DNA of 61,300 nucleotides, counting the filler, from Fonticula-like sp. SCN 57-25 (taxonomy: Eukaryota), in the NCBI GenBank assembly GCA_001724245.1. It is 2 parts of 2 records of this genome, joined end to end, with 100 filler letters (N's around TTAATTAATTAA, not from the genome) between each part and the next. Parts side by side here need not be neighbours in the genome. Positions count along the whole stretch, not along the records: positions 31,214 to 61,300 come from MEDX01000047.1; 1 more part is not named here. One strand, 5' to 3'. A program made the position numbers and the translations under genes. Shown here in pieces: positions 31,114 to 43,785 of this stretch. The notes under the pieces are model-generated. The model was not told the DNA's origin. It was given only the letters and a program-made list of their open reading frames with translations, and did not search any database. Numbering within the stretch: position 1 is the first letter of the stretch; each line of letters opens with the position of its first letter.

Positions 31114-31213
31114 NNNNNNNNNNNNNNNNNNNNNNNNNNNNNNNNNNNNNNNNNNNNTTAATTAATTAANNNNNNNNNNNNNNNNNNNNNNNNNNNNNNN
31201 NNNNNNNNNNNNN
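31114..31213. other. Artificial contig-joining spacer
   Basis: 44 N + TTAATTAATTAA (stop codons in all six frames) + 44 N = 100 nt. Confidence 0.95.
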
Positions 31214-34514: not shown

Positions 34515-36367
34515 TCATTCTTTGCTGATCTCGTCCTCGTAGCACTGCAACTGGAACATGATCTGCTGGCTTCCCTTTTCGCCAGCGCTGTTCCTGAAGC
34601 GCACAAACCGGAAAACGCCCTCGTCGCGCATAACAAGCGCGAGGCTGTTTGGCACCGGGCGCAGCGTCAGCAGCGTGTCCTCCTCGCTCGTGTACACAAT
34701 GTCGCCGCCGCTCTGCGCGACGCCCGCGTCGTCCATCGAGCCGTCGCCGTCGGCAAAGTAGATGACGTCAAGGCCGGGAGGGTACGTGATGACGTCATCG
34801 TCGTGGACGAGCGTGTAGTGGCCAATCAGGAAGCGGGACACGGAGAGCGGCGCGTGCGACGAGAGGCCGTCGAGGCCGGTCAGCGCGCGCACAAGATCGC
34901 GGAACGACGTCGACTCAAAGTATGACGTCAGTTGTGACGTCACTGATTGTGTTGGTGATGTCACTGCCTCTTTTTCTGTATAGATACCACCACACATCAG
35001 CCACAGTGAATGTATCGGACGTTGCGCACCCTTTGCCAACACGTCGTGGTGCCGCCGGTGGGCAGGCCCGCTCTGCGCCCACGTGGCATCTCGTAGCGAC
35101 GCGAGAAGGGCCGCGTGGACGTCCTTGTCGAGAAAGTTGTGCAGGACGACGGTGGACTCTTCGATGAAGACGTCGCGGACGCGCGCGGCGACGGCGGCGG
35201 TGGAGCGGTACGCGGCGGAGAGCAGCGGAGGCGCTTCGGGCGCGTCGGCGGGCACGAAAGGAAGGTGCTCGGCCGCTTAAAAAGAAAAGAAATATACGTC
35301 AAAATCAGAGCCAGAATGGCGCGTGCGAGGTAGGCGACAGCATAGCCAAAGCCAGGAACAACAACCAAAAGTGACCGAAAACCTACAAAAGCGACCAAAA
35401 AAGCAACCAAAAACACACACAACACCAATAAAAATGGTTTACGCACGTGGCTCGCTCCACCTCGGCGGCGGCGGCAGGCTGGCGTCGGCGTGGAACCACC
35501 CCGATATCGAGATGCGCTCGCGGTTGGGCGCCGAGCAGGTGACCTGCGCGACCTGGTGGTACGAAATTGGCGACACTTCAAAAAAGGCGATCGAGTTCCA
35601 TTCGGGGACCAATGAGCGCACGACATTCCTCGGCTGCCCATTCTCATCGCTGTATATCGATGGTCAGCAGAGTGCTCAATCAACGGCAAAGACACACGTG
35701 GTCCTCGTCTCAACGCAATGATTCGCAAAGAAACATTCATAAATAAACAACCAAAAAGTACCGACAACACATAAAACAGCAAAAAAAGCAAAACAAGTTC
35801 TCTTTCGTACGTGTCAAAGAGGTCGAGTGCGCCGCCGTCCTCAGCGGACCAATCCTCTGATACCAGGTATACAATAAAGGCGACGCGCCTCCCATCAAGC
35901 TCGTCGTCATGGCAAAGCAAATAATCTGTGTGCGCGTACCGCGCGGCCGACATGTCGATCCGGTCCGACACCTGCGCCCCGATGACGCTCGAGATCATGC
36001 CGCGGAACGACTCGCTGTAAATCGCGTTGCGCAGCGCCACGAGGGCGGGATTCGTCGTCACAGCAAAGTCGTGGCGCGACTGGTGAAACTTGTAGAGATC
36101 ATTCGACTTTGGCACAAACAAAGAGTCGTCGCGGATCGCGTTTAGCGCATCGCGCAAAAGGCTGGGATCAAAGACGTTGCGGAGGCGGCACGCAGGGAAC
36201 GGCGCGCCAATCACCTCATACGATCCCGCCGGATCGGAACAATCGACCCGCTTCTGAAAGCCAGACGAGATGGCCGACAGGTCATTCTCTGACAGACCGC
36301 GCCAGCCGGGCGCAGGCTTGCCGGAATCCGACGGCTCGTCCAAGCGCACGCGCTTCGCCTCCGACAT
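34515..36367 (-). CDS. OGFOD1: Prolyl 3-hydroxylase OGFOD1/Tpa1; 3 introns
   Basis: PFP, DLYKFHQS, YLLCHDDELDGRRVAFIVYLV, GGALDLF, PEWNSIAFFEVSPISYHQV, RISISGWFH, second inactive dioxygenase-like domain (PVPNSLALVMRD). Confidence 0.92.
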
Positions 36368-36408
36368 GGCGGGCACCGTGCAGTCGTTCGTGTACGTGGC
36401 CACCAAAA

Positions 36409-36448
36409 GTCACGTGATGTAACTTGTCACGTGACAAAGTTGACATCA
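36409..36448. promoter_or_regulatory. Double E-box within an imperfect palindrome in the OGFOD1/MCO divergent promoter
   Basis: GTCACGTGAT at 36409 and TTGTCACGTGACAA (perfect 14-bp palindrome) at 36424-36437. Confidence 0.55.
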
Positions 36449-36522
36449 TCTCTCGTCATGGCGGGAGCGTTTCTCCGACATTGCGGGCGCTTGGGCTTTT
36501 ACTTGCGCCTTTCCCCGCCGCC

Positions 36523-37912
36523 ATGAAGCCTTCCGTGCTGTCTGTGGCCGCCCTGGCCCTCGTGTTTGCCGGCGTTGCGTGCGCGACGAACCGCACGTAC
36601 TACCTTGCGGCGGTCGAGGTCGACTGGGACTATGCTCCCTCTGGCATTGATCAGTGGCACAACGTGCCGCTCGAGGAGTCGGACGATGCCGCCGTGTTCT
36701 GCACGCGCGACGACACGCACATTGGCCGCGTTTACCGCAAGGCGATCTTCCGCGGCTACACGGACGAGACCTTTTCGCAGCAGATCGAGACGCCCGCCTG
36801 GATGGGCTTCCTCGGCCCCGTGATCCGCGCCGAGGTCGGCGATGAGGTGCACGTGGTCTTTAAGAACCTCGCTTCCCGCCCGTACAGCATCCACCCGCAC
36901 GGCGTCCACTACACCAAGGAGCACGAGGGTGCGTGATGGCCGCAGAGGACAGTGGAAAAGCGGCGATGCTGACCATTTTTTGTTAGGTGCGACTTACCAC
37001 GATGGCTATGACACGATCGGCGATTCGATCGCGCCGAACGCGACGTACACGTACATCTGGACTGTCCCTGAGCGCTCCGGCCCCGGCCCCAGCGACGGCA
37101 ACTCGGTGCTGTGGTCGTACCACTCGCACGTGAGCGAGTCCAAGGACGTTTACGCCGGCCTCATGGGCCCGATCGTCGTGTACAAGCCGGGCACGCTCGG
37201 CGAGAACGGCCTCCCCAACGGCATCGACCGTGAGTACTTTGTGTTCCTGCTCGTCGTCGATGAGAACCAGAGGTGCGTTGGCGTGCTTTAGTGTGTAAAA
37301 GTGTCATTTTTATGTACAAATTTGTCATATTTTTATGTGCAAATGTGCCATACCGAGATGTGTTTTTGTGTTTTTTGCATTATCTTTGCTGCAATGTGCT
37401 CACACTCCTGCAGCTGGTACCTTGACCACAACATCCAGACGTACTGCTACACGCCCGACGAGGTCGACGTTGAGGACGACGTCTTTGTCGAGAGCAACCT
37501 GATGCACGCCGTCAACGGCTTTGTCTTTGCCAACCTCAACGAGATGTTTATGTGCGTCGACGAGACCGTCCACTGGCACACGTGGGCGCTCGGCACCGAG
37601 GTCGACCTGCACAGCTGGCACTGGCACGGCAACACGCTCCTGCACTCTGGTGCGTCACTTTTAATGTCCAATCACGCTCGTTTGCTGACTCTTTGTTTAG
37701 GCCACCGCACCGACGTCATTGAGCTGCTGCCGGCGACGATGCGCACGCTCGAGATGACGCCCGACAACGCGGGCAACTGGGCCGCGCACTGCCACGTGTC
37801 GGACCACGCGCCCAGCATGACGCTCTACTTCCAGGTGGCCGAGAAGGACAAGTGCGACCAGGGCATTCAGCACTGGCTGCCCAAGCAGGGCGCCCGCGGA
37901 ACCGGCTTTTAA
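36523..37912 (+). CDS. Secreted two-domain multicopper oxidase of ceruloplasmin/hephaestin type (379 aa); introns 36929-36986, 37273-37413, 37650-37700
   Basis: Signal peptide; RTYYLAAVEVDWDYAP, YRKAIFRGYTD, GFLGPVIRAEVGD, HPHG, YHSH, DENQSWYL, HAVNG, DLHSWHWHG, HCHVSDH...M. Confidence 0.92.
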
Positions 37913-38123
37913 TGCAGATGGTGTCTGTGATTCCATTGTAAAGCAATAAAAGACATTTCTGTTGAAACATTGCGCAAAACAGTCATTTCTGCTGCTGAAT
38001 CAATCATTCAACATCAATCATTTGACACTGCTCAATGCATAAAATAATAAACGAGTTCATTTCCAATCAATTGTTATTAAAACTTTTCTGTTCCTTTGCT
38101 ACATTCATCTTCCTTTTTCCCGC

Positions 38124-41100
38124 TCAGCGCCCCTTTGTCTTGAGCCTCTCCTCCGGGTGATCATAATCCTTGAGCTTGAAGATCAGCTTGCGCGCCTGGA
38201 ACACGTCGTTGATAATGATCGTAAACTCCTTGATGATCTTGTCGTCGGCCGGCGTCCCGAGCGCGAGCAGCAGCTTCCTCGTATCGACGAGCGCCTCCTG
38301 CAGATCGTTCGTGGTATCGAACGCGTCCATTTCAGTCATGCCGTGACCCTTTGTGAGCGAGTACAGCGACCTGTACGTGTACAGCGTGAGCGCAAACCCG
38401 TCGATGCGCGCGTTCGCCTCAAACGTCGGAATCAGCGTCGCGTCAATTCCGAGGTCGAGCGCGGCGCTGTTGACGAGGTCGGCGGCCGACGCAAACAGGT
38501 CCGTCTTGCCCGAGCTCGCCGCGTACGGCGACCGCGTCGCAATGTCATACTTGTTGCGGAACAGCTGCACAAACACGGGCGTCCCGGCCATCTCCTTCTT
38601 GTCAAAGTCGTCGTCAAAGAGCGGCAGAGAAAGCTGCGTCAGCGGCAGCGCATTCGGGTCGGGCACCTCAGTCTCAGTGTCCTCATCCTCATCCTCGTCC
38701 TCCTCGGTGACAGCGTCGATAAGCTCGCGGCCCATCGACCCAAACACGGCGAGCGCCGAGCGGTCCACCTGCTGCAGCACGGCCGCCGTCGCGTCGTCGA
38801 GCGGCGGCAGGGCGGCAAACGTCGTAATCTTGTTTTCCGTCGCGAAGCGCTCAATGGCCGGGTCGACCGCCTTGCGCGCAAAGAGGCGCGCGCACACGAG
38901 CAAGAGGTTGGGCACGCCCTCGACCGTCTTTGGCGCCTTGAGAATGGCGTTCAGGTGGCCGCTGCGGAAGAGGTGCAGGAACGCAAACTGCGCCTCGCCG
39001 AGCGAGACGAGCCGCGCCGCGTCGCGCGAGCCGAGCAGGCCCGACGACATGGCGCCCTGGCGGCGGTAAAAGTCGAGCAGGTAGCGCGCGAGGTACTTTT
39101 GCGGCGCCGCAGCCTTGGCGTTTGTAAACACATTCATCGACTTTGTGACGAGGTTGACGACGCCGTCGTGCACGCGCTTGACGGACGGGTCGTCCGGGTC
39201 GAGAGTGCGCTCGGCGACGATGCTCTGGTGCACGACGCGGTAGAACGAGTCCGATTGCAGCGGGCGCGCCTCCTTGAACGACGACAGCGGCGTCGTCAGC
39301 AGCGCGCGGACCTTGCTGTGCGGCAGGCCGAAAAAGACAACGTGGCCGACGTCGTCCTGGCCACGGCGGCCGGCGCGGCCGCCCATCTGGCGGTAGTTGA
39401 CAGAGTCAATGTACAGGCCGTCGCCGCAGAAGACGACAGAGCGGCACGGCATGTTGATGCCGAGCGACAGCGTGCCCGTCGCAAAGATGACGTTGAGCTG
39501 GCGCATGCGGAAAAGCATCTCGACAATACGGCGGTACTGCGACGGCATCTGACGGTGGTGCACGCCAATGCCGCGCTCGAGGCCGGTCACGAACGAGTGG
39601 TGCAGACCGGTGCGCGCGAGGCGCTTGATGCGGCCTTCAATGTACTTTTTCAGGCTGTCGTCAACGCGGTTGTCGGGGTTGAGGAAAGAGTGGTCGAGCA
39701 GCATCTTGAACTGAAGACCGGCGCTCGTGCGGCCTTCGCTCGGCGCGAGCATCTCGGCCTGCTCCTGATTCAGGCCCTGCTTCTGCTTCTTCATGAACGC
39801 CTCGACGCGCTTGGCGTGCGCCTCCTCGCGCGCCTCCAGCTCATGAAGGCTCCGTTTCCACTCGGGCTTGCTGCGCGCGATCTCTTCCTCGCGAAGAAGC
39901 GACTCGACAGTGGCACGCAAAAGGCGGTCGCAGCGGCCCGCGCTAAAGCTAAAGGCAATGACGGGCAGCTTGTCCTGCGCCTTGAGCGTGCGCAGCAGCC
40001 CGGGGATGCCCTTCTCGAGGTACTCGTTGTCGACGAGCGTCAGGCCCTCGCGGCCCCACGCCTTCTCGACCTCCTCCGTCGCGGCGACGACCTTGCCGCC
40101 GAGGCGCTGAATCACCTGGCCGACCTGCGCGCAGCGGCGCGACTGGACGAGACGGCAGAAAAAGGCCAAAAGCTCCTTTTGGTACGCGATAAAAGTGTCG
40201 CGCGTGACAATGTCCGTAAAGTACGTCGTCGGCTCGAGCGCGGCGAGGTCGCGGTCCTCCTTGCCGAGCACGCGGACGAGCGCGCGGTGAAGCGTGTACG
40301 CCTCATCGGGGGGGAGGAAAAGATCGGGCGGGAGGTACTGGCTCGTGGGGACGCCAGAGAGCGCAAGGGCGTCAAGCTCTTCCCACGAGAAAAGCGCAAG
40401 CGAGTGCAGCGAATGAAGCGTCTCGGCGGGCGCAGCAGCGGGCGCAGCAGCAGCAGCAGCAGCAGCAGGCGTGGCAGCAGCAGGCGTAGCAACAGCGGCA
40501 TCAGCAGGAACATCGGCCTTTTCCTCATCCTCGGCCTCCGGAATAACCTGGTCTTCCTCCACCTTTGCCTTCACCTCTGGCATCGGGAGGTAGACGTGCT
40601 TGTTGAGGTCGTTGTAGCGGTACTGCGCGTCGATGAACGACACGCGGCTGACGTCGGCGTGCACCTGCCTGAGCCACTCCTCGAGCAGCTTGGGGCTTCC
40701 AATGGTGGCGGAAAGCGCGAGGAAAGGCGCGCGGCAGAGCAGCAAAAGGCGCTCCCAGACGTTACCCTCGGGACTGTTAATGCAGTGAACCTCGTCAAAG
40801 ATAAAGTAGCGGATGCGCGACACCCAGTCCATGACCTTTTTGCTGGGCGACAGGAGCAGCTCCTCGAGCGCCGACGGCGAGCAAACGAGCACCTGCGAGT
40901 TGAACACGTTGATCTCGAGCTGGTCCGTGTAGGCGCCGACAGCGTGGCGCATGGCGCCGCCCGACGGGTACGACTTGTTGTAGCGGGCATTCACCTCGGC
41001 AAACACCTGGTTGACAAGCGCCTGAATGGGCGCAACAAAGACGGCGACGCCCTCGTTGTCCTCGTAGAGAACGCGGCGCAGGCAGTACGCCGAAATGAAC

Positions 41101-43394
41101 GTCTTGCCGGCCGACGACGGCGCGCAAACAACAGCGCTCTCGTTTCGGTCGACAATGTCGAGCAGAGCGCGCTGCCACGGGTCGGGCGCGAACGGGACGC
41201 GCTCGTCGTGCGCGTGCTTCTCGCGAGGCAGCTTGTGGCCGAGGAAGCGCAGCTGAATCTCCTGGATGCTCGGGCGCACAACCGTCGACGCGCGCGGCTC
41301 CTCCATCGGAGCGGGCATCGACCACAGCGTCGACAGCGACGTCACCATATCGGCAAAGCCCACGTTGTGCACGTTCACCATGAGCAGCTGACGCTGCGTC
41401 ATCGTCACCTCGGACTTGTCCGTCCCCGACTTGAGCACAGACACGAGACGGCGCACGGCAGTGAAAAGCGCAAGCGCAATCGTCGCATTCTTGACATTGT
41501 TCACCGTCGGGCTGTTGCCGCTGCGGTTACGCCACTGCTCATAGGTCGTCTGGAACTCGGCGACGAGCATTGCGGCCGTCACGGGCGGCGACGTCTTGGC
41601 GGCGAACGTAGCAATGTGACCGCGTGCAACAATCGTCTCCGCTTCAAGCTGGCCGAGAAGCGTCGTTGCGACATTGCGCTGGAAGGCAGCGTCAATCGCC
41701 TTGAGGCGCTGCTCCTTGAGGCTCAGCGCGCCGCCGCGGCCGCCAGAGCCGCGCGACGAATCCTCGTCATCATCAGCAATATCATCCTCATAGTCGCCGC
41801 CGTCGTCGTCGTCGTTGCCAGTGCCGCCCGATGCGACGCGCGACAATTCGTCGTCGTCGCCGAGCGTGTCCGCCGCGTCGGCCTCGTCTTCCTCATCATC
41901 GTCAAAGTCGTCCTCGTCCATGCCGGGCAGGTCGCAGTCAAAGGCAATCTGCGCGTCGACCGAGCGCAGGCTGTCGTACAGAGCGTCGGTGCCGGCGGGG
42001 GCCGCGGGCGCTCCCGTGCGGAGCTGCTCGAGGGCGAGCGCGAGCCCGGCGGGCGTCGCAGCCGGCCAGATCGGCTCAAAGTTGGCGGCGTCGGCCTCGG
42101 AAACGGCCTCGGGCGCCATGGCGGCCACGTCGCGCCACATGCGCATCACGAGCGTCTTGAGGACGCCGTTGGCCGCAAGAAGCGTCGTCGCAGAGTTGCG
42201 CGCGGCGATGGACGCGACCGCGTGAAGAACGCGGCCGTCAAGCCAGTCGACGACGTTGGTCGGGAGCGGCTGCGGGTTCGGGCGCGCGGCAAAGTGGCGC
42301 TGCGCCGACACAAAGTGCAGGCTGAGCGCGTCGATAAACTCGACGAGAAGCGCGCTCGGGGCGGCAACCTTCTGGGCGCGCGCGCGCGAGTCGACAAAGT
42401 GGAGCAGCGCAACGTGCAGCACGTAGAGCTTGCACAGCGGGAGGAACTCGGCGCGGCGGTCGGGGAGGTGCTTGAGGATGCTCGCGGCGACACCCGACGC
42501 GATCTGCGACGCCATCGTCTCGGCGGAGGGGTCCGCCTTGCGCGCCACAAAGGTCAGCGGGAGCGACGCAGAGTGCTGCTGAAGCCAGTCGCGCGCGAGA
42601 GCCGCCTCGGACTGCGACGCGTACAGCGAGAGGTGATCGCTCGTGAGCGGCGGGATGTGCATCGCGATGCGGACGGGGCGCGCCATCGAGCCGTAGCAGT
42701 GCGTGCCCTCAAGCTCAATCGTCTCCCAGAAAAGCACAGAGTGGTTACGCGAGAGCGAGACAGCAGCGAGGACGCGCGAGTGCTCCTCAATCTCGGAGAG
42801 GCGCACGCGGGATGCCAGCTCAGTGACCGGCACGTTCGGGGCGCTGCGCGCGGGAACGAACACAAGGGGGAGCGAGCCGCCAAGATGCTCATCGGCAAAC
42901 GTGTTGATCGTAGAGTAGCGCTCAACGAAAATGCGCGGCTGGAGACGCTTCTTCTGGAGCTGGAGGTGCGTCAGGATCGCGTGGCGAAGCGCGAGCAGAC
43001 GGGGGTGCGCAGCCCAGCTCTGCGCCAGATTGTCGAAAAAGACAATGATGATGCGCGCATCAGAGAGGGACGCAAGCATCTGAGAGAGGCGGCGCTCAAT
43101 GTGGAAGGCAGCGTGCACAGGCTGACCACCATAGAGCGTGTCCACGACATCGACCGTCTCGGCGAGGAGACTGTCGCCGTGTACGATCACCGTGCGGCTG
43201 ACGTCGACAAGTGCGCTGACATCCTCGCGCTGCGGGCGGCTCAGCAAAAGAAGCTGATCAGCAAGCTTGGCGACATCAGAGGCAGTGGAAGCGGTCTTCG
43301 CTAGGGACGAAGCCGACGCCACGGCGTCACCAATTACCTCGTCAAAGATGAGATTCTCATCCACCGTCTCGAAGAAGGTCTTCTTGATCGGCAT
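38124..43394 (-). CDS. DDX60: DDX60-like Ski2-family DEVH RNA helicase, intronless
   Basis: FAPDPWQRALLDIVDRNESAVVCAPSSAGKTFIS, IFDEVH, PFLALSATIG, GIGVHH, VIFATGTLSLGINMPCRSVVF, YRQMGGRAGRRG; long N-terminal region (VHGDSLL, QPVHAAFHIE). Confidence 0.85.
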   Translation of the reverse strand: MPIKKTFFETVDENLIFDEVIGDAVASASSLAKTASTASDVAKLADQLLLLSRPQREDVSALVDVSRTVIVHGDSLLAETVDVVDTLYGGQPVHAAFHIERRLSQMLASLSDARIIIVFFDNLAQSWAAHPRLLALRHAILTHLQLQKKRLQPRIFVERYSTINTFADEHLGGSLPLVFVPARSAPNVPVTELASRVRLSEIEEHSRVLAAVSLSRNHSVLFWETIELEGTHCYGSMARPVRIAMHIPPLTSDHLSLYASQSEAALARDWLQQHSASLPLTFVARKADPSAETMASQIASGVAASILKHLPDRRAEFLPLCKLYVLHVALLHFVDSRARAQKVAAPSALLVEFIDALSLHFVSAQRHFAARPNPQPLPTNVVDWLDGRVLHAVASIAARNSATTLLAANGVLKTLVMRMWRDVAAMAPEAVSEADAANFEPIWPAATPAGLALALEQLRTGAPAAPAGTDALYDSLRSVDAQIAFDCDLPGMDEDDFDDDEEDEADAADTLGDDDELSRVASGGTGNDDDDGGDYEDDIADDDEDSSRGSGGRGGALSLKEQRLKAIDAAFQRNVATTLLGQLEAETIVARGHIATFAAKTSPPVTAAMLVAEFQTTYEQWRNRSGNSPTVNNVKNATIALALFTAVRRLVSVLKSGTDKSEVTMTQRQLLMVNVHNVGFADMVTSLSTLWSMPAPMEEPRASTVVRPSIQEIQLRFLGHKLPREKHAHDERVPFAPDPWQRALLDIVDRNESAVVCAPSSAGKTFISAYCLRRVLYEDNEGVAVFVAPIQALVNQVFAEVNARYNKSYPSGGAMRHAVGAYTDQLEINVFNSQVLVCSPSALEELLLSPSKKVMDWVSRIRYFIFDEVHCINSPEGNVWERLLLLCRAPFLALSATIGSPKLLEEWLRQVHADVSRVSFIDAQYRYNDLNKHVYLPMPEVKAKVEEDQVIPEAEDEEKADVPADAAVATPAAATPAAAAAAAAPAAAPAETLHSLHSLALFSWEELDALALSGVPTSQYLPPDLFLPPDEAYTLHRALVRVLGKEDRDLAALEPTTYFTDIVTRDTFIAYQKELLAFFCRLVQSRRCAQVGQVIQRLGGKVVAATEEVEKAWGREGLTLVDNEYLEKGIPGLLRTLKAQDKLPVIAFSFSAGRCDRLLRATVESLLREEEIARSKPEWKRSLHELEAREEAHAKRVEAFMKKQKQGLNQEQAEMLAPSEGRTSAGLQFKMLLDHSFLNPDNRVDDSLKKYIEGRIKRLARTGLHHSFVTGLERGIGVHHRQMPSQYRRIVEMLFRMRQLNVIFATGTLSLGINMPCRSVVFCGDGLYIDSVNYRQMGGRAGRRGQDDVGHVVFFGLPHSKVRALLTTPLSSFKEARPLQSDSFYRVVHQSIVAERTLDPDDPSVKRVHDGVVNLVTKSMNVFTNAKAAAPQKYLARYLLDFYRRQGAMSSGLLGSRDAARLVSLGEAQFAFLHLFRSGHLNAILKAPKTVEGVPNLLLVCARLFARKAVDPAIERFATENKITTFAALPPLDDATAAVLQQVDRSALAVFGSMGRELIDAVTEEDEDEDEDTETEVPDPNALPLTQLSLPLFDDDFDKKEMAGTPVFVQLFRNKYDIATRSPYAASSGKTDLFASAADLVNSAALDLGIDATLIPTFEANARIDGFALTLYTYRSLYSLTKGHGMTEMDAFDTTNDLQEALVDTRKLLLALGTPADDKIIKEFTIIINDVFQARKLIFKLKDYDHPEERLKTKGR

Positions 43395-43785
43395 GGCAGG
43401 CAAAAAGCATCTAAAGTCGGTCACGGTCGGTCACGGTCGGTTTAAAAGAGTGAAATTTTGTGAAAATCTGATGTATGCCAACAATGCCAACGAGCCCGCA
43501 GGGCGGCATACAACACGTAATCATTGCTTTCACGCTTGCAGTGTGCCTTGAATAGGAAAAAAAGTGCTTTGTGACAGTTAATTTCGGCATATGGACACTG
43601 TAAATATGCCTTCAGTACATTGCCAAGTACGTACTTTTCAGTCATACTAGGCATACCGCCATATTGCATGCACAACAAAATGAATAGTAACATCATATTA
43701 AACATTAAAAACAATAATACAAAGGCATACTGAATATGATACAACGCACTGACAGCACGTCAACAATCACTATTAATCCAACTCA

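Follow-up and report, generated by a model that had tools for sequence, protein, structure and literature searches.

Ceruloplasmin, hephaestin and HEPHL1 (PDB 1KCW, 2J5W, 5N0K) carry six cupredoxin domains in one chain, and in these animal proteins the trinuclear copper ligands are confined to domains 1 and 6. According to a 2013 survey, the only forms present in eukaryotes are those with three or six domains; the survey also drew a scheme leading from a two-domain to a six-domain protein (PMC3600357). Until now, the triplication model for ceruloplasmin has drawn on bacterial two-domain laccases, which are distantly related, and on ancestors that are hypothetical. The small laccase SLAC (3CG8) and the Nitrosomonas blue copper oxidase (3G5W), both two-domain enzymes of solved structure, form homotrimers whose trinuclear clusters lie at the subunit interfaces, and SLAC has its type-1 copper in domain 2. 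A secreted two-domain "one-third ceruloplasmin" of Fusarium oxysporum, FOYG_17127, was published in 2020 with a predicted homotrimeric assembly; its group of seven ascomycetes was read as a transfer from extremophile prokaryotes (PMC6994591). Four further papers (PMC7594830, PMC7036934, PMC11761707, PMC7676907) serve as background only. In the current study, we characterized a four-exon gene on the plus strand, at positions 36523-37912, of a stretch of DNA from Fonticula-like sp. SCN 57-25; the whole stretch analysed, 61,300 nucleotides with filler, is here called the window, and the product of the gene the window protein. The spliced coding sequence of 1140 nt encodes 379 amino acids, so the complete two-domain secreted protein proposed in the initial annotation was recovered with exactly the coordinates and length given there. 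We think it rather likely that the window protein is a two-domain oxidase of the ceruloplasmin lineage, secreted and probably N-glycosylated, that would assemble as a homotrimer, use Fe(II) as its substrate and belong to a clade lying outside, and next to, the animal triplication.

The N-terminus of the window protein is a typical signal peptide, and the chain contains three N-x-S/T sequons (N23, N153 and N229). Pfam searches identified Cu-oxidase_3 in exons 1 and 2 (E-values of 1.9e-5 and 9.8e-5) and Cu-oxidase_2 in exon 4 (6.5e-8). Against solved structures, exon 1 matched ceruloplasmin (E 8e-87) in three stretches that are its three odd domains, and domain 2 likewise matched it in three stretches (E 3e-74); the match is far beyond chance, and each of the ceruloplasmin/hephaestin motifs quoted in the initial annotation is present in the translation. 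By comparison, SLAC and 3G5W gave E-values of about 1e-5 over 36 residues; they act as laccases and belong to a different branch of the superfamily. Domain 1 of the window protein supplies the ligands H124-P-H126 and H181-S-H183 and has no Cys at the type-1 position. Domain 2 supplies H297-x2-H300-x-H302 and H339-C340-H341-x3-H345-x3-M349, with H297, C340, H345 and M349 forming the single type-1 copper site. Eight histidines thus lie in four HxH motifs, four in each domain. When 171 two-domain sequences were aligned, 10 of the 12 ligand columns were invariant in 171/171 and the other two had one and two exceptions; the window protein retains all 12 ligands, in agreement with the full set and the domain-2 location of type-1 copper claimed for it at the outset. 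The shortened type-1 loop noted at the same time is equally real. H345-x3-M349 spacing occurs in the window protein alone among the 171 sequences (170/171 have H-x4-M), and the short loop lies inside exon 4, distant from the splice sites. That it shifts the redox potential, as suggested in the initial annotation, would be speculation, but this natural variant, one residue shorter than its relatives, could be used to study how loop length tunes a blue copper site.

The protein has two cupredoxin domains, a single type-1 site in domain 2 and no third domain, and the window holds no further oxidase exon: in tblastn searches of the 61 kb with two six-domain and three two-domain queries no other oxidase segment was found, all remaining matches having E-values of at least 0.078. 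The window protein has the same type-1 and trinuclear motifs, Fe(II)-site residues and even-domain Cys pair as ceruloplasmin, hephaestin and HEPHL1, and the same copper geometry would be expected. It differs in having two domains instead of six in the chain, in lacking the odd-domain disulfide of ceruloplasmin and in its shorter type-1 loop. Its trinuclear ligands are present in every unit, so that three clusters per trimer would be expected, whereas ceruloplasmin has one per chain.

The two halves of the trinuclear cluster would lie on opposite faces of a single chain, and for that reason the enzyme would be expected to work as a homotrimer. With domain 1 of each subunit packed against domain 2 of the next, the trimer would contain three type-1 sites and as many O2-reducing clusters, an arrangement that ceruloplasmin achieves within one chain. 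Inter-subunit clusters of this kind had been suggested when the gene was first noted, and a structural model of P0133, the closest full-length relative, is consistent with them. With three copies of residues 28-360 of P0133, the score was 0.91, and the best control gave 0.29. Of the proteins whose solved structures are pairs of one chain, 21 of 30 attain the mark used, as do 0 of 23 solved as single chains; these counts are approximate for three copies. Contact agreement between runs was at least 95%, the predicted local distance difference test score (pLDDT) was at least 91, and the modelled interface brings H133 of one copy together with H308, H310 and H349 of the next. Overall, the window protein is probably a homotrimeric ferroxidase of pre-triplication grade.

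With exon 1 as the query, the longer proteins among the matches listed (at least 120) were all of 818-1837 aa, and the named ones were animal proteins of the ceruloplasmin, hephaestin and HEPHL1 types; only six-domain-sized proteins were listed because these match three times. When the 45 top-scoring six-domain proteins were compared with the window protein, the best-matching unit of each (domains 1-2 or 5-6) showed 42-48% identity over 330-381 aligned residues; in the eight six-domain proteins for which each of the three units was compared, identity was 33-47%. A eukaryotic two-domain protein this similar to ceruloplasmin units makes the triplication model testable at the bench. A profile search admitting proteins of 51-648 aa returned many two-domain proteins of 360-420 aa from metagenomes and metagenome-assembled genomes; the window protein is 47-54% identical to these, and prokaryotic homologues of this length number in the thousands. 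The closest relatives are the JGI proteins P0133-P0135 (385-387 aa), which are 56-59% identical. The family is large: P0133 as query gave 5061 matches of 211-674 aa, the named ones including Nitrolancea, Thermomicrobiales, Planctomycetes, Nitrosotalea, Thermosynechococcaceae and Oceanicoccus, and a profile search of 1.84 billion representatives gave 5935 matches, at a level (50% identity representatives) where the closest relatives are merged into prokaryotic clusters. In species-representative genomes, the patterns of one query led to 258 confirmed stretches, mostly in Actinomycetota and Chloroflexota. The prokaryotic two-domain oxidases, annotated automatically (e.g., in Nitrolancea, Kouleothrix, Arthrobacter, Nitrosotalea and Oceanicoccus), are in the length class of the window protein and have its 12 ligands and Fe(II)-site residues. 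They differ in having bacterial signal peptides, no introns and a loop 1 that is three residues longer, and in stopping 7-14 residues past the axial Met (13 sequences inspected). In FOYG_17127, compared here by its published description, some of the ligand positions listed in the figure legend have other residues (Y, D and Q; PMC6994591).

Looking up cluster members revealed eukaryotic two-domain proteins in Calcarisporiella, Thamnocephalis, Cladochytrium, Nowakowskiella, Hyaloraphidium, Quaeritorhiza, Paraphysoderma, Tribonema, Phaeothamnion and the amoebozoan Soliformovum, and six-domain FOX1-type proteins in Volvox, Ostreobium, Haematococcus, Gloeochaete and Paulinella. The seven early-diverging fungi are also represented in NCBI (Paraphysoderma KAI9139107.1, Calcarisporiella XP_069257090.1, Thamnocephalis RKP07223.1, Quaeritorhiza KAJ3085469.1, Cladochytrium KAI8815092.1, Nowakowskiella KAJ1533094.1 and Hyaloraphidium KAI9022466.1), where they are labelled "cupredoxin" or uncharacterised. 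The window gene is one more member of a family already in the databases, and the surprise it offers is moderate. The view of it as a singular relic has to be given up, since its clade includes at least seven named early-diverging fungi and two algae, in a family with thousands of prokaryotic members. The early-fungal two-domain group appears little noticed and may contain the closest two-domain relatives of the animal iron oxidases; literature searches, with subscription journals outside their coverage, found no paper on this clade or on a fusion of FTR1 with an oxidase. The early-fungal proteins have the two-domain plan and ligand set of the window protein. The latter is soluble, whereas three of them form fusions with FTR1 and another carries a hydrophobic anchor at its C-terminus. 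Such C-terminal anchors, which hephaestin has as well, are also seen in the protist and fungal two-domain proteins P0452, P0453 (Soliformovum), P0456, P0457, P0460 and P0435.

The placement of the window protein was examined in several trees. In a FastTree analysis of 146 rows, the animal units fell into three groups and the window protein joined P0133-P0135 (support 99), beside 90 other two-domain proteins (89). With 339 two-domain units, FastTree placed it in a 14-row clade (96), here called clade E, which comprises seven early-diverging fungi, two ochrophyte algae (Tribonema and Phaeothamnion), four unnamed metagenome proteins and the window protein. A more careful tree was built with IQ-TREE under LG+C20 with posterior mean site frequencies (PMSF) from 73 of the 339 rows: all 14 of clade E, 7 anchor-bearing protist rows (T), 19 of 54 prokaryote representatives (P), 15 algal units (S) and 18 animal units (A). 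P0406_3x1 and P0411_2x1, long unnamed rows beside clade E at support 67, were left out. Supports in this tree, given as ultrafast bootstrap / SH-like approximate likelihood ratio test with a bootstrap that had not fully settled (correlation 0.97), were 99/95 for clade E, 99/98 for the window protein with P0133-P0135 and P0472, 100/99 for the animal units, 97/90 for the union of A and E, and 20/58 for that of P and T. The quick tree gave 93 for A with E and 95 for clade E. The animal units formed one clade excluding the window protein at 99 in both FastTree trees, as did all 18 of them in the careful tree. Domain 1 on its own placed E beside A with two T rows (95), domain 2 on its own placed it there with seven S rows (92), and in no tree was the window protein nested among prokaryotic sequences. 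By this placement, the window protein lies outside the animal triplication and is pre-triplication in grade. The idea that it represents the pre-triplication ferroxidase stands to that extent, clade E adjoining the animal clade in the best tree; the further step, that it represents the ancestor of ceruloplasmin, is no more than a favoured reading, given the topology test described below. Algal FOX1 belongs to the same superfamily, and its units, too, lie outside the animal clade, in agreement with a separate triplication. In Paulinella micropora, the three units of the six-domain protein P0335 cluster together (100), suggesting that this protein triplicated independently. P0328 (2656 aa) consists of six full two-domain units, and P0329 of four.

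The Fe(II) site beside the domain-6 type-1 copper of ceruloplasmin consists of E272, E935, H940 and D1025 (PMC3738974). Their equivalents in the window protein are E293, E257, H262 and D344, as assigned from the coordinates of the match to 1KCW, and these residues are conserved in 12-13 of the 14 clade-E rows and in 18-19 of the 19 P rows. The permease fusions of chytrids provide an independent functional link to iron uptake. In Pfam searches, an FTR1 iron permease domain precedes the two-domain oxidase in P0443 of Nowakowskiella (E 5e-43) and P0447 of Hyaloraphidium (E 8e-49), and P0424 of Cladochytrium begins within an FTR1 tail. Motifs in the linker between FTR1 and oxidase are common to all three genera, and a C-terminal CCSEESNAFF motif occurs in both P0447 and P0424, with a hydrophobic helix after it in P0424. 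Because the linker motifs and CCSEESNAFF are conserved, these joins are taken to be true fusions and not merged gene models; the fused oxidase may be seated in an outer loop of the permease. Since the four residues of the domain-6 iron site are kept and clade-E proteins from chytrids and monoblepharids are fused to FTR1, the substrate of the window protein is most likely Fe(II). The protein would oxidise Fe(II) for an Ftr1-type uptake system, a role proposed by analogy with Fet3p-Ftr1p of yeast and FOX1-FTR1 of green algae, in which an extracellular ferroxidase feeds an Ftr1 permease. Fet3 has three domains and FOX1 six, in contrast to the two of the window protein, and in chytrids the two-domain oxidase is covalently joined to the permease.

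A number of observations weigh against this interpretation, and several of them lend themselves to other explanations. The first of these concern the phylogeny. In an approximately unbiased (AU) test, the best tree holding clade E with the prokaryotes lost 2.83 log-likelihood units and was not rejected (p = 0.426). The tree has no outgroup, and describing clade E as the sister of the animal family assumes a root among the other groups. An alternative that we regard as somewhat doubtful, while giving it more weight than any other, is that the enzyme is the same but the eukaryotic two-domain clade derives from its own prokaryotic transfer, without being sister to the animal six-domain family, the likeness to ceruloplasmin being family-wide. 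Such an origin would suit the AU result, the great size of the prokaryotic family and the higher identity of the window protein to its prokaryotic members than to the best animal units. Similarly, the two algae within clade E show transfer between eukaryotes or patchy loss, and the Fusarium two-domain homologue has itself been read as a horizontal transfer (PMC6994591). On the other hand, the support for A with E in the best tree and the position of E beside the animals in both half-protein trees argue against it, as do the three spliceosomal introns of the window gene and its ordinary eukaryotic neighbours; given these introns and neighbours, any transfer must be old.

Discrete characters speak on both sides of this question. 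The column of Cys278 holds Cys in 16/18 first, 15/18 second and 0/16 third animal units, and in 0 of 167 prokaryote rows. A tail Cys no more than 16 residues past the axial ligand occurs in 11/12 first, 13/16 second and 1/16 third animal units that could be evaluated, and in 8 of 167 prokaryote rows. The pair in the window protein matches the even-domain pair of animal domains 2 and 4, which speaks against a prokaryotic origin by transfer. By position, it matches the C257-C338 disulfide of human ceruloplasmin, and the 19-residue spacing to the type-1 His fits this. The window protein and the four proteins nearest to it have both Cys, which amounts to 5 of 14 clade-E rows, whereas the nine named members (seven fungi and two algae) have neither the pair nor the short type-1 loop. 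As a shared derived character of clade E and animals, the pair is suggestive only, because it occurs in just these five rows. The lengths of two loops give opposite signals. Loop 1 has 10 residues in 13/14 clade-E rows and 6/6 first animal units, as against 13 in 19/19 P and 7/7 T rows, which speaks against a prokaryotic transfer. Loop 2 has 27 residues in 17/19 P rows and 6/6 first animal units and 22-25 in clade E, which speaks for it. The discrete characters are thus mixed. Returning to a clade E that adjoins the animal triplication, we would tentatively extend this reading to a possible history: the common ancestor of animals and fungi may have had a two-domain, homotrimeric, ceruloplasmin-type ferroxidase working with Ftr1. 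The fungal side would have kept it, in the soluble form of the window protist and the permease fusions of chytrids, and the animal side would have triplicated it to give ceruloplasmin and hephaestin. On this history, the window gene, with an even-domain Cys pair of ceruloplasmin that is otherwise kept by four unnamed relatives only, would be the closest living stand-in for the pre-triplication enzyme.

Other observations bear on assembly and function. The trimer was modelled on P0133, a 56% identical relative, in place of the window protein, and its high score may reflect memory of solved ceruloplasmin or two-domain laccase structures. The one-residue deletion in the type-1 loop could mean that this site is weakened or abolished. 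No FTR1 was found in the 61-kb window, and no iron gene lies beside the oxidase gene within it. The neighbourhoods of prokaryotic members showed no FTR1 and no conserved partner among the 72 of 133 called open reading frames scanned at 20 of 80 loci. Genes for a BlaI/CopY-type repressor and a BlaR1-type protease precede that of the oxidase at two Chloroflexi loci (L003:1901-3445 and L005:1973-3477), and at an Oscillochloris locus (L013:1808-3736) a P-type ATPase gene does so; such neighbours hint at copper rather than iron handling for some members. Together with the JGI label "manganese oxidase" on some relatives, these features raise the prospect of another substrate (a phenol, as in laccases, a cuprous ion for copper tolerance, or manganese) or, by way of the short loop, of a decaying and inactive copy. 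We consider this unlikely. The database labels are automatic, the window protein preserves the four Fe(II)-site residues together with all 12 copper ligands, some members of its clade are fusions with FTR1, and its reading frame stays open through all four exons.

The stop and the splicing of the gene model rest on homology, which must also be counted among the reservations. The start is the first in-frame ATG, preceded by a GCCGCC context. All three introns are of the GT..AG type with identical donors, and the coding sequence has a GC content of 0.64, well above that of the introns and of the 211 bases 3' of the stop (Table 1), where the AT-rich 3' region expected from the initial annotation is indeed found. 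The exon joints are supported because the alignment to full-length relatives runs across them without gaps. Intron 3 is in frame and stop-free, but no relative has the 17 residues that its retention would add. Since other clade members have C-terminal anchors or an N-terminal FTR1, the model might be incomplete, with more exons or a membrane anchor spliced on past position 37912, a proposition that we find very improbable. The stop falls where P0133-P0135 end, and the alignment reaches the tail, differing in the last residues only. Furthermore, AATAAA lies 33 nt past the stop, the following 5.3 kb are occupied by a convergent helicase gene, and no oxidase-like or FTR1-like coding sequence occurs elsewhere in the window. 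Least credible of all is secondary reduction, in which one two-domain unit was cut from a six-domain ceruloplasmin- or hephaestin-like gene: the identity to the best units of six-domain proteins and the Cys pair of animal domains 2 and 4 would agree with it, but the animal six-domain units form a clade of their own from which the window protein is excluded, its nearest relatives are all two-domain proteins, and it keeps, with 170 two-domain relatives, trinuclear ligands that animals retain in domains 1 and 6 only.

Table 1. Coordinates of the oxidase gene and its flanking regions in the window.
Feature	Positions	Strand	Details
Divergent promoter/5' region	36367..36522		156 bp; common to the Ofd1/Tpa1-like 2OG-Fe(II) oxygenase gene (minus strand)
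Exon 1	36523..36928	+	Start ATG at 36523; signal peptide (about aa 1-21); N23-R-T sequon; first part of domain 1; H124 and H126 (36892-36900)
Intron 1	36929..36986	+	58 nt; GTGCGT..TAG; GC 0.53
Exon 2	36987..37272	+	Remainder of domain 1; H181 and H183 (37121-37129); N153-A-T sequon; inter-domain linker
Intron 2	37273..37413	+	141 nt; GTGCGT..CAG; GC 0.38
Exon 3	37414..37649	+	First part of domain 2; E257, H262, E293; Cys242, Cys278; type-1 His297; trinuclear-cluster H300 and H302
Intron 3	37650..37700	+	51 nt; GTGCGT..TAG; GC 0.43; in frame, stop-free
Exon 4	37701..37912	+	H339-C340-H341, D344, H345 and short loop to M349 (37787-37819); C-terminal tail with Cys361 (37853-37855); stop TAA (37910-37912)
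AT-rich 3' region	37913..38123		GC 0.34; AATAAA at 37945-37950; common to the convergent DDX60-like helicase gene

The genes around the oxidase are those of an ordinary eukaryotic locus. Upstream, the Ofd1/Tpa1-like 2-oxoglutarate-Fe(II) (2OG-Fe(II)) oxygenase gene is divergent and 156 bp away. The promoter region between the two genes contains two CACGTG boxes (36411-36416 and 36428-36433) within a repeated TCACGTGA word. Downstream, a convergent DDX60-like helicase frame ends at 38124. The remaining genes of the window are of the housekeeping kind and encode CPSF subunits, an IF-2B family protein, Omp85, SRP72 and a P5 ATPase, while two others carry GATA_AreA and DUF5898 domains, which are mainly fungal. 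Recent contamination or a bacterial insert was considered as a source of the oxidase gene and rejected, because the gene contains three spliceosomal introns and its neighbours are eukaryotic. Two runs of 44 N (31114-31157 and 31170-31213) between a cytochrome-b5-domain gene and the DUF5898 gene fall in the filler that joins the parts of the stretch. The DDX60-like helicase, which has a PIN-like domain, is a single frame of 1768 codons on the minus strand (38124-43430) and is intronless, unlike the small oxidase gene adjacent to it.

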